NCBI RefSeq assembly: GCF_003334335.1
Contig: NZ_QOWQ01000065.1
Length of the DNA: 10,108 nt
Origin: Escherichia coli
GTDB lineage: Bacteria > Pseudomonadota > Gammaproteobacteria > Enterobacterales > Enterobacteriaceae
Strand: one strand, 5' to 3'
The translations under genes and the position numbers were made by a program. The notes below the pieces were generated by a model, which saw only the letters and a list, made by a program, of their open reading frames with translations, was not told the DNA's origin and made no database searches. This document shows positions 1,946-5,895 of the stretch, in pieces (the stretch's first letter is position 1; every line of letters starts with the position of its first letter).

Positions 1946-3013
1946 ATGAGTCAACATCAATATTATCCACAGCTGAAATGGAAGCCTGCTGAATATGAAT
2001 CTCTGATGCTTTTAGATCAAACTACGCTCTCTGGTTTTACTCCGATCATTACCATTCCAGACATAGACTGGGATTATGAAAACGAATGCTACAAGAAGAG
2101 TTTGAGTTCTTACTTATCTGACTTCGGTATTAACCTTGCGGCATCCTGGAAAGCCAATCGTCCTGTTTTGCTGGATGTTAAATATTTAGATAAACATGGT
2201 TCGAGCCGCCATCATCCTCTAGATATGTGTATCCAAGATGCTAGAGTAAATGGTAAGGAAATTATCCCTGTTGTTTCTCCCGCATATTCAACAAACTATA
2301 TACATGCTGTTCAACGCAACTTAATCAATGGGCTCGCTATATCTATCCCCCCCCAGACATGGCACCAATTCACAAGTCTGGTTAACCACTTAAATATTCA
2401 TCCTAGTTTAATTGATGTAATCATTGATTTTGGAGATATTCAAAACGCAACTGATAGTTTAAAACAACAAGCATTAAGCATGGTCAACACATTATCAGGC
2501 CAAGCTCCGTGGAGAAACTTGATTTTATCTTCAACCGCATACCCAGCATCACAGGCAGGGATACCGCAACATCAAGTTCATCATATTCCGCGCCATGAAT
2601 ACGATCTTTGGATGTACGTAGTACAGAATTTTAGCAATGGAAGAACGCCAAGTTTTAGTGATTATCCCACCGCTAGCTCTACCATTACGAGCGTAGACCC
2701 ACGCTTCATGTCTCAGTATGTCTCAGTGAGATATTCGAACGATACCTCATGGATCTTTGTAAAAGGTACCGCAGTTAAAGGAAATGGATGGGGCCAAACT
2801 AAAAACTTATGTACTACCCTTGTTAGTTCGCCAGAGTATCAAGTCTTTGGTTCCAAATTTAGTTGGGGGGATGATTACATTTACCAAAGATCATTAGGCG
2901 CTAACAAATCTGGCGGCTCTAAAGAATGGCGTAAAGTTGCACATACGCACCATATTACGTTAGTCGTGAGACAGCTTTATTGGTTGGCGCAGACTCAGCC
3001 TGCCAAGCCTTAA
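1946..3013 (+). CDS. Hypothetical protein, 355 aa, cargo-island gene 1 (function unknown)
   Basis: Longest plus-strand ORF in the window. Strong SD (TAAGGAG at 1934..1940) about 5 nt before the ATG at 1946. Possible -10 TATACT at 1910..1915. Markedly A+T-rich codon usage compared with flanking phage genes. No motif I can assign to a known family. Confidence 0.75.
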   Translation: MSQHQYYPQLKWKPAEYESLMLLDQTTLSGFTPIITIPDIDWDYENECYKKSLSSYLSDFGINLAASWKANRPVLLDVKYLDKHGSSRHHPLDMCIQDARVNGKEIIPVVSPAYSTNYIHAVQRNLINGLAISIPPQTWHQFTSLVNHLNIHPSLIDVIIDFGDIQNATDSLKQQALSMVNTLSGQAPWRNLILSSTAYPASQAGIPQHQVHHIPRHEYDLWMYVVQNFSNGRTPSFSDYPTASSTITSVDPRFMSQYVSVRYSNDTSWIFVKGTAVKGNGWGQTKNLCTTLVSSPEYQVFGSKFSWGDDYIYQRSLGANKSGGSKEWRKVAHTHHITLVVRQLYWLAQTQPAKP

Positions 3014-3575
3014 CTTTCCAGCCTACGCGTTTCTTTAAGGCTGTTCTGACTTCAAGCCTGAGATTCGCTATTGGAATATTTTCCGCAATAATATTCCATA
3101 ACTCAAATCGGGGCTTGCTTTTGATTCCTTTGGAATAGCCCCATCGTTCAAGTACGTCGATACATTCATCTTTCCAAAGCAATTGAGCGAGCATCAATGT
3201 GTCATGGTTTCGATTAAGCTTTTCTCCACGCATGTGCTTTATAAGAATGGCGCCTTTTGGCCCAACAGAAACCGTTTTAACGCCCCACCAACCTGGGATT
3301 AACTTTAATGCTCCCTCAAGATGTTTCTCAGCTACGACAAGAGTAACCTTGTCCATTACAGAAGAATAATGCTTGATTTGAAGAGGCAAACGCTCCAAAG
3401 AGTCATATTCACTTTTGAGCTCGTACCCGTGTATAACACCATTTATTACAGCAATGTCTGCTCTACTGGCGCCAAGGGATATGGAAAATTCATCGACCAC
3501 AAGGCAGTCTGGATCTAAATGCGATTCTTTCAAAAGCTTATGATGCACCGCGAACCTAACATCTTGATCTTTCAT
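2955..3575 (-). CDS. Hypothetical protein, 206 aa, with PD-(D/E)xK-like nuclease motif; cargo-island gene 2
   Basis: Minus ORF with strong SD (AAGGAG, 5-nt spacer) before the ATG at 3575. N-terminal region VVDEFSISLGASRADIAVINGVIHGYELKSEYD has the E ... hD ... hExK spacing typical of the restriction-endonuclease-like (PD-(D/E)xK) fold. A+T-rich. Convergent with, and overlapping by 59 nt, the 355-aa gene. Confidence 0.75.
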   Translation of the reverse strand: MKDQDVRFAVHHKLLKESHLDPDCLVVDEFSISLGASRADIAVINGVIHGYELKSEYDSLERLPLQIKHYSSVMDKVTLVVAEKHLEGALKLIPGWWGVKTVSVGPKGAILIKHMRGEKLNRNHDTLMLAQLLWKDECIDVLERWGYSKGIKSKPRFELWNIIAENIPIANLRLEVRTALKKRVGWKVKAWQAESAPTNKAVSRLT

Positions 3576-3991: not shown

Positions 3992-4429
3992 TTATTTTAA
4001 GCACTGCGTCCTGATGTACTCCTGCAGGTAGTTGACCTGCGCGGTTATCTTGTCGATTCCACTTCGGAGACGGTAATAATTGAGTTCAGCATCTGCTGTA
4101 AGTCTTGGGCTTTCTCCATTGCCCATGCCGCTGGCTCCGGTCGTTGACTTTGCACAGGTAGCGGCGACTTGCAGGCGCTTACGCCCAGCAGAAACATCAG
4201 CACGGAGGCTTTCGATAGTCGCGTTAGCATCAGCAAGCTCCTTTGTATATCTGGCATCGAGTTCTGCTACGTCACGTTGACGCTTCTGCATATCAGCGAT
4301 TGTGGATGTGGCTTTATCGCGCTGCTCTTTGTAGGTTATGGCGTTATCACGGTAATGATTCAGCCCCAGACTAAGCGCACCACAGGCCACCAGCAGGGCA
4401 ATGATGACCACGCACAGTACGCGGTTCAT
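3992..4429 (-). CDS. Rz: Rz, i-spanin (inner-membrane spanin subunit)
   Basis: 145-aa ORF with N-terminal TM segment (VLCVVIIALLVACGALSL) followed by NHYRDNAITYKEQRDK..., periplasmic coiled-coil-like region and C-terminal ...NYLQEYIRTQC. Matches lambda Rz as I recall it (…VNHYRDNAITYKAQRDK…). Confidence 0.9.
   Translation of the reverse strand: MNRVLCVVIIALLVACGALSLGLNHYRDNAITYKEQRDKATSTIADMQKRQRDVAELDARYTKELADANATIESLRADVSAGRKRLQVAATCAKSTTGASGMGNGESPRLTADAELNYYRLRSGIDKITAQVNYLQEYIRTQCLK
4045..4230 (-). CDS. Rz1: Rz1, o-spanin lipoprotein, embedded in +1 frame of Rz
   Basis: ORF wholly inside Rz in another frame. From the ATG at 4230 (preceded by AGGAG with 7-nt spacer): MLTRLSKASVLMFLLGVSAC-KSPLPVQSQRPEPAAW..., i.e. 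signal peptide, lipobox-like VSAC, then a Pro-rich mature part. The track's upstream ATG at 4257 is an alternative start. Confidence 0.8.
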   Translation of the reverse strand: MLTRLSKASVLMFLLGVSACKSPLPVQSQRPEPAAWAMEKAQDLQQMLNSIITVSEVESTR

Positions 4430-4430
4430 T

Positions 4431-4529
4431 TCACCACCAGCGTATCTGACCGATGAAATAACCGGAGGCCATAATCACAAACACCAGCCAGATAAGAATG
4501 AACTTCCAGGTGGATAATTTTTCAGCCAT
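4431..4529 (-). CDS. Putative small hydrophobic peptide (32 aa) between endolysin and Rz
   Basis: Internal ATG of track ORF 4431..4700, preceded by GGGAG with 9-nt spacer. Product MAEKLSTWKFILIWLVFVIMASGYFIGQIRWW is a single predicted TM helix. The stop is 1 nt before the Rz ATG. The longer 89-codon reading would run through the hairpin at 4605..4637, so the short form is preferred. Coding status unproven. Confidence 0.3.
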   Translation of the reverse strand: MAEKLSTWKFILIWLVFVIMASGYFIGQIRWW

Positions 4530-4604
4530 CACTCGAATCTCCCGAATCAGTTTGCTAAAATCAAACACACTTTCTCCTTTGACTTTTCCGGAGTCAGGAA
4601 ACAC

Positions 4605-4637
4605 AAAACCCCGCTTGCAGCCAACAAACGGGGTTTT
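4605..4637. terminator. Hairpin with flanking A/T runs (bidirectional terminator-like) between endolysin and small ORF
   Basis: AAAACCCCG-(15-nt loop)-CGGGGTTTT, followed by TTTTTACTTTTATTC on the plus strand; the reverse complement is also followed by TTTTGTGTTT. Lies ~90 nt downstream of the endolysin stop on the minus strand. Confidence 0.4.
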
Positions 4638-4727
4638 TACTTTTATTCTCTTAGTTTTTGTCAGTTCGCAGGATTTCGTGTTATCCGTCCGTGTGAGCAA
4701 ACCGCATTTTTCAGCAAAATATTCTGC

Positions 4728-5261
4728 TTATCTGTCAATTCCCCAGCACGCCAGCGCACTCTCCTGGTCGCGACGGGATACCTGACCGTAACAGTTGTTT
4801 GAGCGAATACGGCAGTCTCTGCCACCGTCCTTAATCCACCAGCGAATCGCCTCACACGCTCCCCTGCGATCACCTGCATTAATTCGTTTATAAAACGTCG
4901 ACGGAAAACACTTACCGGGGCCAATGTTGTACGGACAGAATGACGCGATCCCCGCTTTCTGGGGTTCACTCAATGGCACTCTGATGTTTTTCTCCACCCA
5001 TGCCAGCGCCTTATCACGCTCAATGGCGTTAACCCGGTCGCATTTTTCCTTCGACAACTTCATGCCCGGAACGACAGGTTTGCCATCCACCAGGATGGCA
5101 CCGCGGCAGATGGTCCAGATACCCGCGCCATCACGGTATGCCGTGGTGTGGTTACCTTCCTTTTCATCCAGAAACTGGTCGAGAATGTCAGGCGCAGGCG
5201 CACCAGCGGCAATCAGCGCCAGAACGGCAGCCGACAGGCCGTATCTGATTTTTGCGTTCAT
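4728..5261 (-). CDS. R: Phage endolysin, T4-lysozyme-like (GH24), probable SAR-type
   Basis: 177-aa ORF. Catalytic E-x8-D-x5-T motif (EGNHTTAYRDGAGIWT). N-terminal Gly/Ala-rich weakly hydrophobic segment (YGLSAAVLALIAAGAPAP) typical of signal-anchor-release endolysins. Resembles phage 21 R / E. coli Qin-prophage lysozyme as I recall them. Confidence 0.9.
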   Translation of the reverse strand: MNAKIRYGLSAAVLALIAAGAPAPDILDQFLDEKEGNHTTAYRDGAGIWTICRGAILVDGKPVVPGMKLSKEKCDRVNAIERDKALAWVEKNIRVPLSEPQKAGIASFCPYNIGPGKCFPSTFYKRINAGDRRGACEAIRWWIKDGGRDCRIRSNNCYGQVSRRDQESALACWGIDR

Positions 5262-5324
5262 GGATATTTATCAGGATTTATCGGTTTCTGCCCACGGACA
5301 GGTTTATCTGTTCCGGTCAGTGAC

Positions 5325-5675
5325 TTAAGGTTGTGATTCCGGAGGAGTCTTCAGAGAACCAGTAATTCTTCCCGGTAGCTTTCCTTTGTAGGTTATCCAT
5401 ACATTCTGCGCCTCTAAAATTACGGGGCGCTTTTCCGGCGACTGCTCATCCCCTTCACATAACCCGGCAGCAACATCCAGGAAGACCTGTCTGATGCTCC
5501 TTCTGGCTGCTGCCTCATAAAACTCCAGCGCGGCACCTTCAACACGGTCCAGCGAGATGTCCAGGTCAAAAATTTCACCGTCAAAGCGTTTTTTGTCCCG
5601 TAACGCTAAAGTTACCGTAACTTTATTCTCAAAATTGCGGATCCCTTTCACAATCAGTTTATAGTTTTGAGTCAT
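5325..5675 (-). CDS. Hypothetical protein, 116 aa, likely DUF1327 (YdfR-like), between holin and endolysin
   Basis: Soluble, acidic ORF (MTQNYKLIVKGIRNFENKVTVTLALRDKKRFDGEIFDLDISLDRVEGAALEFYEAAARRS...). Starts 4 nt after the holin stop, with GGGGAGAG upstream. Same position as ydfR in the K-12 Qin lysis cassette (essQ-ydfR-rrrQ). Family assignment is from memory, not a search. Confidence 0.65.
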   Translation of the reverse strand: MTQNYKLIVKGIRNFENKVTVTLALRDKKRFDGEIFDLDISLDRVEGAALEFYEAAARRSIRQVFLDVAAGLCEGDEQSPEKRPVILEAQNVWITYKGKLPGRITGSLKTPPESQP

Positions 5676-5679
5676 TGAA

Positions 5680-5895
5680 TTACTCTCCCCGTGCAGCCTT
5701 ACGACGGTCCTCTCTGATTTTGAAATACAGGTTAGTCAGATATGTCAGCAGCCCAAACAGCAGACTCCCCAGCACGCCTATTGCCGCCCACTGAGACGGG
5801 GAAACCCTGTCCAGCAACTGCAGGAACCAGTAGCCCGTTCCCACCGCTGACGTGGTGTATGACACACCTGTTGTGATTTTTTCCATCTGGTACAT
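5680..5895 (-). CDS. S: Class II holin, phage-21 S-like pinholin with dual start
   Basis: From the ATG at 5895: [71 protein letters not shown] (71 aa). Near-identical in pattern to phage 21 S (MKSMDKISTG...[24 protein letters not shown]...[21 protein letters not shown]). Two in-frame Met codons 3 codons apart give the antiholin/holin dual-start arrangement. GGAG lies 7 nt upstream. The track's longer 106-codon ORF to 6000 is probably read-through of upstream sequence. Confidence 0.85.

Follow-up and report, generated by a model that had tools for sequence, protein, structure and literature searches.

The gene that lies between the holin and endolysin genes of an Escherichia coli prophage lysis cassette may well be a piece of travelling cargo, and not part of the lysis clock. 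The cassette is found in the window analysed here, a 10,108-nucleotide (nt) stretch of E. coli DNA (contig NZ_QOWQ01000065.1), and the gene in question encodes a protein of 116 amino acids (aa) that belongs to the YdfR/DUF1327 family. Judging from sequence comparisons, we give the cargo reading a probability of roughly 0.45, because the gene is optional, reassorts freely with its neighbours, evolves rapidly under relaxed constraint and occurs in other genera in contexts that have nothing to do with lysis. We envision YdfR/DUF1327 as a mobile accessory late gene (a "moron") in the junction between the holin gene S and the endolysin gene R. Its cytoplasmic product would most likely act on RNase E, by binding to the catalytic half, and/or on RNA, modulating the decay of host or phage mRNA late in infection.

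A common cassette with two filled junctions

The lysis cassette of this region is intact and belongs to the late operon of a lambdoid E. coli prophage, which resembles Shiga toxin (Stx) phages and is stx-negative. Every cassette gene is carried on the minus strand, from the first holin ATG at 5895 to the Rz stop at 3992, and these two positions are exactly the limits drawn in a preliminary description of this DNA. In the order of transcription, the holin gene is followed by YdfR/DUF1327, an endolysin gene of the signal-anchor-release (SAR) type, a leader with a hairpin, an open reading frame (ORF) of 45 aa and finally Rz with the embedded Rz1. The elements of the cassette are as follows (TM, transmembrane).

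5895-5680, minus strand: class II holin of the P21 S family, putative pinholin, 71 aa (Pfam PF04971)
5675-5325, minus strand: YdfR/DUF1327 protein, soluble, 116 aa (Pfam PF07041; phrog_406, phrog_2091)
5324-5262, minus strand: spacer between DUF1327 and endolysin genes, 63 nt (from a comparison of the junction with L002, a related locus, K-12 and 933W)
5261-4728, minus strand: SAR-type endolysin, a T4-lysozyme-like muramidase, 177 aa (R21/RrrD homology; phrog_7)
4727-4569, minus strand: leader of the R-Rz insert, 159 nt, containing the next hairpin
4637-4605, minus strand: terminator-like hairpin, 14-bp stem with 6 GC pairs and a 5-nt loop, then UUUUGUGUUU
4568-4431, minus strand: ORF for a small membrane protein, 45 aa (phrog_6632, E=5e-29)
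4429-3992, minus strand: Rz i-spanin, 145 aa (phrog_13, E=3e-69; N-terminal TM segment by hydropathy)
4230-4045, minus strand: Rz1 o-spanin, 61 aa, embedded in the +1 frame of Rz (phrog_3198, E=2.5e-27)

The preliminary description saw here a canonical cassette that had been interrupted twice. Both inserts are present, but as an oddity the claim does not stand, since this is among the commonest layouts of E. coli prophages. In fact, the layout is already annotated in E. coli K-12: the architecture is not new and represents a standard E. coli prophage type. Stx1a, Stx2a and Stx2c phages also have holin, DUF1327, endolysin, small ORF and Rz in this order, and the 2.15-kb region recurs at 100% identity in 10 complete E. 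coli chromosomes. Among 5426 complete E. coli genomes, 4349 (~80%) contain ydfR-like DNA, at 8617 places and often in several copies per genome, while class II holin DNA is detected at 14924 places in 5010 genomes. Thus, more than half of the class II holin loci that can be detected at the DNA level carry DUF1327.

The K-12 prophage Qin, with essQ-ydfR-rrrQ-rzpQ, has the same order and the same families: YdfR starts 4 nt past the holin stop and is followed by a 177-aa lysozyme and then by a spanin gene. The two cassettes differ in their details. Qin YdfR has 103 aa, a C-terminal tail of another kind and a stop that overlaps with the ATG of rrrQ, whereas the window combines a 116-aa protein with a 63-nt spacer. 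The Qin holin starts with MKSMDK and the window holin with MYQMEK. Finally, R and the spanin gene of Qin have no hairpin and no small ORF between them, and rzpQ encodes a DUF2514 protein, unlike the window Rz.

A narrow family with a variable tail

As the preliminary description had it, the protein encoded between holin and endolysin is soluble and DUF1327-like. The Pfam search matches it to PF07041 at E=5.2e-42, with residues 1-112 aligned to model positions 1-92 of 93, and RefSeq names it "YdfR family protein", as it does proteins with 97-98% identity to it. It has no hydrophobic segment (the highest 15-residue Kyte-Doolittle mean is 0.9) and should therefore be cytoplasmic. In the AlphaFold2 model, residues 1-75 form three antiparallel strands and one long helix with good confidence scores (pLDDT 80-93), followed by a conserved tail (residues 76-116) that is predicted to be disordered.

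The family is narrow, with 64 cluster representatives among 1.84 billion at E<=1e-3, and the 101 phage records that match it are all from Escherichia or Stx phages. A Foldseek search with the model retrieved family members only and no annotated fold neighbour; its distant hits, at 17-37% identity, come from Yersinia, Salmonella, Hafnia, Providencia, Morganella and Rosenbergiella. Neither NCBIfam nor PADLOC gave a match, nor did PDB sequences, whether searched with the single sequence or with a profile. Within these narrow bounds the members are diverse: there are two deeply diverged types of N-domain, MTQNYELIVKG... and MKKKYELVVKGINNYPDK..., and many alternative C-termini, so that total length ranges from 72 to ~290 aa.

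The DUF1327 ATG lies 4 nt past the holin stop, with its Shine-Dalgarno sequence GGGGAGAG inside the final holin codons, and its translation is probably coupled to that of the holin. We found no promoter-like or same-strand terminator-like site between the two genes, and co-transcription with the lysis genes is plausible on these sequence grounds.

An optional, reassorting and mobile gene

Phage 933W makes the case for optionality. Its holin and endolysin are 98.6% and 93% identical to those of the window at the aa level, and no DUF1327 lies between them: R starts 4 nt after S, at the position where DUF1327 starts in the window. For this nearly identical S/R pair of 933W, DUF1327 is dispensable. 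Where the gene is present, its two N-domain types (MTQ.. and MKKK..) occur with the two holin types (MYQMEK and MKSMDK) in all four combinations, as seen in 7 loci; the subtypes of the two genes appear to reassort freely, with no sign of co-variation.

DUF1327 also evolves in a manner of its own. Relative to an Stx2a phage, the ratio of non-synonymous to synonymous changes (omega, or dN/dS) is 0.43 for residues 41-75 and 0.61 for residues 76-113, compared with 0.08 for both the holin and the small ORF before Rz and 0.09 for the endolysin, and residues 1-40 are saturated, being too diverged for alignment at the DNA level. In fact, the DUF1327 protein evolves 5-7 times faster than the neighbouring genes.

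Outside E. coli the gene is found in other places. Homologues in Yersinia prophages (33-38% identity) sit in the tail module, between M- and L-like or between I- and J-like genes, and in one unassigned contig a homologue directly follows Rz/Rz1. In Salmonella, DUF1327 again lies between a holin and a 177-aa lysozyme, with a holin of the HP1 family (PF16080). There, however, the 45 nt before the DUF1327 ATG (L100, 2881-3000) encode FKEDKRKAARGE-stop and so keep the C-terminus of a P21-type holin, its 12 final codons. This recombination scar shows that the gene moved together with the holin 3' end in which its Shine-Dalgarno sequence lies.

A convergent small gene often follows DUF1327, for example one of 98 aa in the E. 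coli phage Evi, where the pair occupies the S-R slot, and one of 99 aa in the Yersinia tail module. Three loci carry the pair in its short form.

L004, 2501-3040: 72-aa DUF1327 gene with a convergent 98-99-aa gene
L103, 3001-3540: 72-aa DUF1327 gene with a convergent 98-99-aa gene
L094, 4001-4548: 72-aa DUF1327 gene with a convergent 98-99-aa gene

Between Evi and Yersinia the partners share 61% identity; they match phrog_25324 and have no Pfam match. Such identity across different slots indicates that a short DUF1327 and its partner travel together from one late-operon junction to another, unrelated one. Elsewhere, DUF1327 is followed by convergent small genes of other kinds (phrog_6806, DUF1823). 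We also asked whether the disordered tail of the window protein is the antisense of a decayed partner gene, and rejected this reading because tblastn gave no significant match in the window.

Cargo or lysis clock?

What YdfR does has been addressed in the one functional study of DUF1327/ydfR that we found in the literature (PMC13232886; RNA Biol 2026); the gene goes unmentioned in surveys of the lysis cassettes of Stx phages. In that study, bacterial two-hybrid assays showed binding of K-12 YdfR, and of its residues 1-72 alone, to the catalytic, N-terminal half of RNase E, and Strep-YdfR co-purified Rne(1-598) along with DNase-resistant nucleic acid. Overexpression caused no growth defect and few transcriptome changes, and ydfR is essentially silent under standard growth (PMC13232886). 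To carry the RNase E mechanism over to the 116-aa variant of the window is to extrapolate from the K-12 orthologue, and we regard it as rather doubtful. A more general proposal, which we consider unlikely, is that DUF1327 would be an unrecognised class of temperate-phage late proteins that dock on the N-terminal half of RNase E and/or on RNA and move through late-operon junctions. In that event mRNA decay would be retuned at the time of lysis and packaging, and the gene would hitch-hike via the S-R junction, the position after Rz and the M-L and I-J junctions of tail modules. Phage-encoded modulators of RNase E exist, such as T4 Srd, phiKZ Dip and T7 gp0.7. Given that K-12 YdfR binds RNase E (PMC13232886), DUF1327 may belong to the same functional class, but it differs from these proteins as a late gene of temperate phages, and any effect of it on RNase E activity is putative.

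Several observations weigh against the cargo reading. In E. coli and Salmonella, DUF1327 is almost always in the S-R slot beside the 177-aa SAR lysozyme, and its start lies exactly 4 nt past the holin stop in 80 of the 80 close loci of our slot census, which drew on near-identical loci from an IMG/VR scan; such linkage is also expected from a lysis-linked function. The contexts beyond E. coli amount to a small sample, a handful of Yersinia, Salmonella and unassigned contigs, as a further protein search listed mostly E. coli. The RNase E data were obtained with the 103-aa K-12 protein, whose C-terminal tail is different, the overexpressed protein barely altered the transcriptome, and the authors could not rule out a contaminant in the RNA pull-down (PMC13232886). 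Finally, a genetic screen, as it is cited in PMC13232886, tied ydfR to envelope integrity. Since ydfR lies directly upstream of rrrQ, we suspect that this link reflects a polar effect.

From co-transcription the preliminary description went on to a candidate lysis-timing or lysis-inhibition factor, a step that the comparisons speak against. In this form, the weaker alternative is a soluble cytoplasmic regulator of SAR-endolysin release. Here DUF1327 would bind the pinholin at its charged C-terminal tail, or the endolysin at its short basic N-terminus (K4, R6), and hole formation or endolysin release would be delayed or sped up, much as an antiholin or the Mu "releasin" would do, but by a soluble protein. 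The tight linkage to the holin, with the 4-nt gap and the Shine-Dalgarno sequence in the holin 3' end, extends from the 80 close loci to K-12, Stx phages and mEp460. The Salmonella copy, again placed between holin and lysozyme and with a lysozyme of the same 177-aa family as its neighbour, fits as well, and the conserved tail (residues 76-113), disordered in the model, looks like a peptide that would fold on a partner. There is even a precedent: Mu gp25, the product of an accessory gene near a SAR endolysin gene, controls endolysin release from the cytoplasmic side via the basic residues of the endolysin N-terminus (PMC9239132). The likeness is one of function and concerns this alternative only. 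Mu gp25, a DUF2730 protein, is anchored by an N-terminal TM segment, whereas the window protein has no TM segment or other membrane anchor, matches DUF1327 alone in the Pfam scan and shows no match to DUF2730 or to a lysis family, and we rejected it as a member of the releasin family. Moreover, the same S/R pair works without DUF1327 in the lytic Stx phage 933W, no co-variation with the holin subtype is seen, the Yersinia homologues lie in tail modules far from lysis genes, and overexpression of K-12 YdfR, without induced S and R, had no growth or lysis phenotype (PMC13232886). All in all, we find a lysis regulator quite unlikely.

There are two further explanations. DUF1327 could be one half of a mobile two-gene module with the convergent small helical protein, acting for example in superinfection exclusion, in anti-defence or as a toxin-antitoxin-like pair; the window would then have lost the partner, and its remaining half would have been extended by the C-terminal tail. 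A convergent small ORF does follow DUF1327 in phages Evi and PhiR12_2_star, in an E. coli contig, in Salmonella and in all Yersinia tail-module copies, and besides the Evi and Yersinia partners with their 61% identity, the Salmonella partner is weakly related to other Yersinia partners (phrog_6806). Yet the partners fall into at least three unrelated families, so the 3' flank may be a mere insertion hot spot. Most E. coli copies, including those of the window and K-12, have no partner, the window holds no remnant of one, and PADLOC has no match for DUF1327 or for two convergent partners. We thus hold the module to be distinctly improbable. Alternatively, the ORF might matter chiefly in cis: as a spacer or coupler of translation it would fix the ratio of endolysin to holin, and its protein would have little function. 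In 933W the endolysin has the strong Shine-Dalgarno sequence GGGGAGAG, the site that DUF1327 takes elsewhere, and with DUF1327 in place the endolysin ATG either comes after an AT-rich leader that lacks a Shine-Dalgarno sequence, as in the window and L002, or, as in K-12, forms an ATGA overlap with the ydfR stop. Elevated omega and the many C-termini of DUF1327 would be expected of such a spacer too. However, omega is still below 1, the N-domain is confidently predicted to fold, and the protein is conserved at 17-38% identity across genera of Enterobacterales, non-lysis contexts included. In K-12 it is stable and binds specific partners (PMC13232886). A role confined to cis is, in our judgement, very improbable.

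The cargo reading is thus the one that we retain for DUF1327. Both known variable slots of the cassette, S-R and R-Rz, are filled by optional cargo.

A second insert between endolysin and Rz

The preliminary description also reported a hairpin and a small ORF between endolysin and Rz, and both are indeed there, the hairpin with its 14-bp stem and the 45-aa ORF with its match to phrog_6632. The ORF has a GTG start after an AGGAG Shine-Dalgarno sequence and stops 1 nt ahead of the Rz ATG; its product has a single, C-terminal TM segment and ends in ...IRWW. Purifying selection (dN/dS 0.08 against the Stx2a phage copy), homologues in other genera and the phrog match indicate that the ORF is real, even though Pfam, NCBIfam and PADLOC have no match for the protein. 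By tblastn, homologues were found in E. coli, Salmonella and Pseudomonas phages, with full-length ones in Salmonella and Pseudomonas phages. In Salmonella phage SPN3UB the homologue is full-length, occupies the same slot and is unannotated, while others lie between baseplate genes (Salmonella phage SEN34) or in the tail region (a Pseudomonas phage), which suggests that the 45-aa protein is not lysis-specific. Most RefSeq E. coli genomes and several phage records leave the ORF unannotated.

This hairpin and small ORF form a second, independent and optional insert. R and Rz overlap (GTGA) in 56 of the 71 close relatives in which both genes were found; the rest carry an insert of 298 nt as in the window (4), of 645 nt (10) or of 490 nt (1). 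The 645-nt insert (L017) contains four tandem small single-TM ORFs, L030 is the 490-nt version, and the ORFs of these arrays match phrog_6632, phrog_4906 and phrog_1115/3246/4493. All versions begin with the same leader and hairpin and end with the ...IRWW ORF 1 nt ahead of the Rz ATG, and Salmonella has the same ...IRWW ending 1 nt before Rz. The leader is 97% identical in an Stx2a phage. Of the 5426 complete E. coli genomes, 2027 contain leader and hairpin together and 869 contain the insert in full.

No promoter-like site was found downstream of the hairpin at 4637-4605, and the 45-aa ORF is thus presumably expressed from a Q-antiterminated late transcript that reads through. We envision that Q-modified polymerase would pass the leader hairpin and that the 45-aa membrane protein would be made in coupling with Rz. 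Arrays of one to four small single-pass membrane peptides behind such a hairpin could be envelope-acting accessory proteins tied to the translation of the spanin.

The core lysis machinery

In the phage 21 paradigm, the pinholin depolarises the membrane, the tethered endolysin is released and refolds, and the spanins fuse the two membranes. The core machinery of the window, a P21-family class II holin, a SAR-type muramidase and embedded Rz/Rz1, would work in the same way by analogy. We know of no DUF1327 gene between S and R of phage 21.

The holin bears out the P21/Qin-type class II holin with two candidate starts of the preliminary description. It matches PF04971 ("Bacteriophage P21 holin S") at E=1e-32 over residues 5-67, as well as phrog_9876 and phrog_20 (holin), and, like the phage 21 protein, has 71 aa and in-frame ATGs at codons 1 and 4 (MYQMEK...). 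Its translation has the traits of the family: ~70 aa, two TM segments, a Gly/Ser-rich TM2 and a charged C-terminal tail. The long form of S21-71 has an extra Lys that gives it antiholin character, whereas the putative long form in the window (MYQM, 5895-5884) has a three-residue extension without Lys or any other basic residue, as in 933W; the S21 and Qin holins start with MKSM. With no basic residue in the MYQ extension, a charge-based antiholin role of the longer product is not to be assumed. A further element lies just upstream.

5919-5903, minus strand: small hairpin CUUCCG-GAUAA-CGGGAG, in both the minimum-free-energy and the centroid fold

This hairpin pairs with the Shine-Dalgarno sequence of the holin, just upstream of the first ATG. 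In its predicted fold it resembles the sdi structure of lambda, and it would serve to sequester the Shine-Dalgarno site.

The SAR-type identity of the endolysin stands on its homology to R21 and RrrD, its catalytic triad and its N-terminal segment. In a phmmer search of PDB it matches R21 (3hde/3hdf) and RrrD (4zpu) at E ~1e-15, and the triad E35/D44/T50, with the spacing E-x8-D-x5-T, can be read in EGNHTTAYRDGAGIWT at the same positions as in R21. R21 is of the 165-aa type, while the window protein is of the 177-aa Qin/933W type, and the Stx-phage homologues of this endolysin have been classed as predicted SAR endolysins (PMC8136144). Its N-terminus, MNAKIRYGLSAAVLALIAAGAPAP, has K4 and R6 followed by a weakly hydrophobic stretch in which 10 of 17 residues are Ala, Gly or Ser; the highest 15-residue Kyte-Doolittle mean is 2.0, a composition that fits a putative SAR segment. 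The Pro right after AGA would speak against cleavage by signal peptidase.

The gap between DUF1327 and the endolysin has the same length in 78 of the 79 related loci in which both genes were found. Its AT-rich end before the endolysin ATG, ctgataaatatccATG (5290-5262), has no obvious Shine-Dalgarno sequence and is conserved in DUF1327-carrying cassettes. Insertion of DUF1327 at the strong site GGGGAGAG of the holin 3' end, which the 933W endolysin uses, thus shifts which gene has the strong Shine-Dalgarno sequence, and the endolysin-to-holin ratio may change as a result.

The spanins are of the two-component, embedded kind. Rz has the N-terminus VLCVVIIALLVACGAL, and in Rz1 a lipobox (LLGVSAC) precedes a Pro-rich mature part. 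The Rz1 ORF spans 70 aa, and its match to phrog_3198 begins at residue 10.

The prophage around the cassette

The cassette is flanked on one side by a block of Q antiterminator, methylase, tRNA and nanS-p genes, and on the other by terminase genes. The features of these flanks are listed below.

5962-5934, minus strand: intrinsic-terminator-like hairpin, 12-bp stem, then UUUUUUAUU, between the nanS-p-like esterase and holin genes
6045-7898, minus strand: nanS-p-like esterase gene, upstream of the holin in the direction of transcription
8121-8330 and 8608-8798, minus strand: copies of the small RNA STnc100 (Rfam RF02076), strong matches (165 and 136 bits)
8396-8569, minus strand: STnc100 copy, weak match
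8874-9123, minus strand: cluster of three tRNA genes
1946-3013, plus strand: "beta family protein" gene (RefSeq; PADLOC model PD-Lambda-2_C/beta, E=4e-32)
2955-3575, minus strand: "sce7726 family protein" gene (RefSeq; PADLOC model cll, E=4e-31)

The hairpins at 4637-4605 and 5962-5934 both look like intrinsic terminators, each with a GC-rich stem-loop and a U-run, and the region has 7 terminator-like sites where 2.9 are expected. A late transcription complex modified by Q would need to pass the hairpin at 5962-5934. An Rfam scan matched neither hairpin to a known RNA family; the only hit there, to the rimP leader (E=0.61), was dismissed as chance.

Two or three STnc100 copies lie in tandem between the three-tRNA cluster and the nanS-p-like esterase gene. 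Since this is the position of stx in Stx phages, the region can be described as an Stx-phage-like late region without toxin genes. With 933W, whose order is S-R-ant-Rz/Rz1-bor, the window shares the nanS-p-type esterase upstream, the tRNA cluster and an R-Rz junction filled with cargo. The cargo differs, ant in 933W and the hairpin and small ORF in the window, and 933W carries stx2 where the window has the STnc100 copies.

The beta and sce7726 genes are convergent and overlap each other in the "bor" slot, between Rz and the terminase genes. By their PADLOC matches they are a candidate anti-phage defence cargo.

Outlook

The value of this analysis lies in the question that it raises about a very widespread gene, more than in the locus of the window itself. 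The small ORF before Rz is widespread and for the most part lacks annotation, a minor gap that deserves to be closed. YdfR/DUF1327 is of another order: found in ~80% of the complete E. coli genomes and in numerous Stx phages, it has kept the status of a "y-gene", with one interaction study, from 2026, to its name. To this we add comparative evidence of an optional, fast-evolving and mobile gene, which points away from a "lysis clock" and towards "host-directed cargo". A link of YdfR to lysis timing or to RNase E would bear on models of how Stx phages release their toxin and of how phages control RNA decay.

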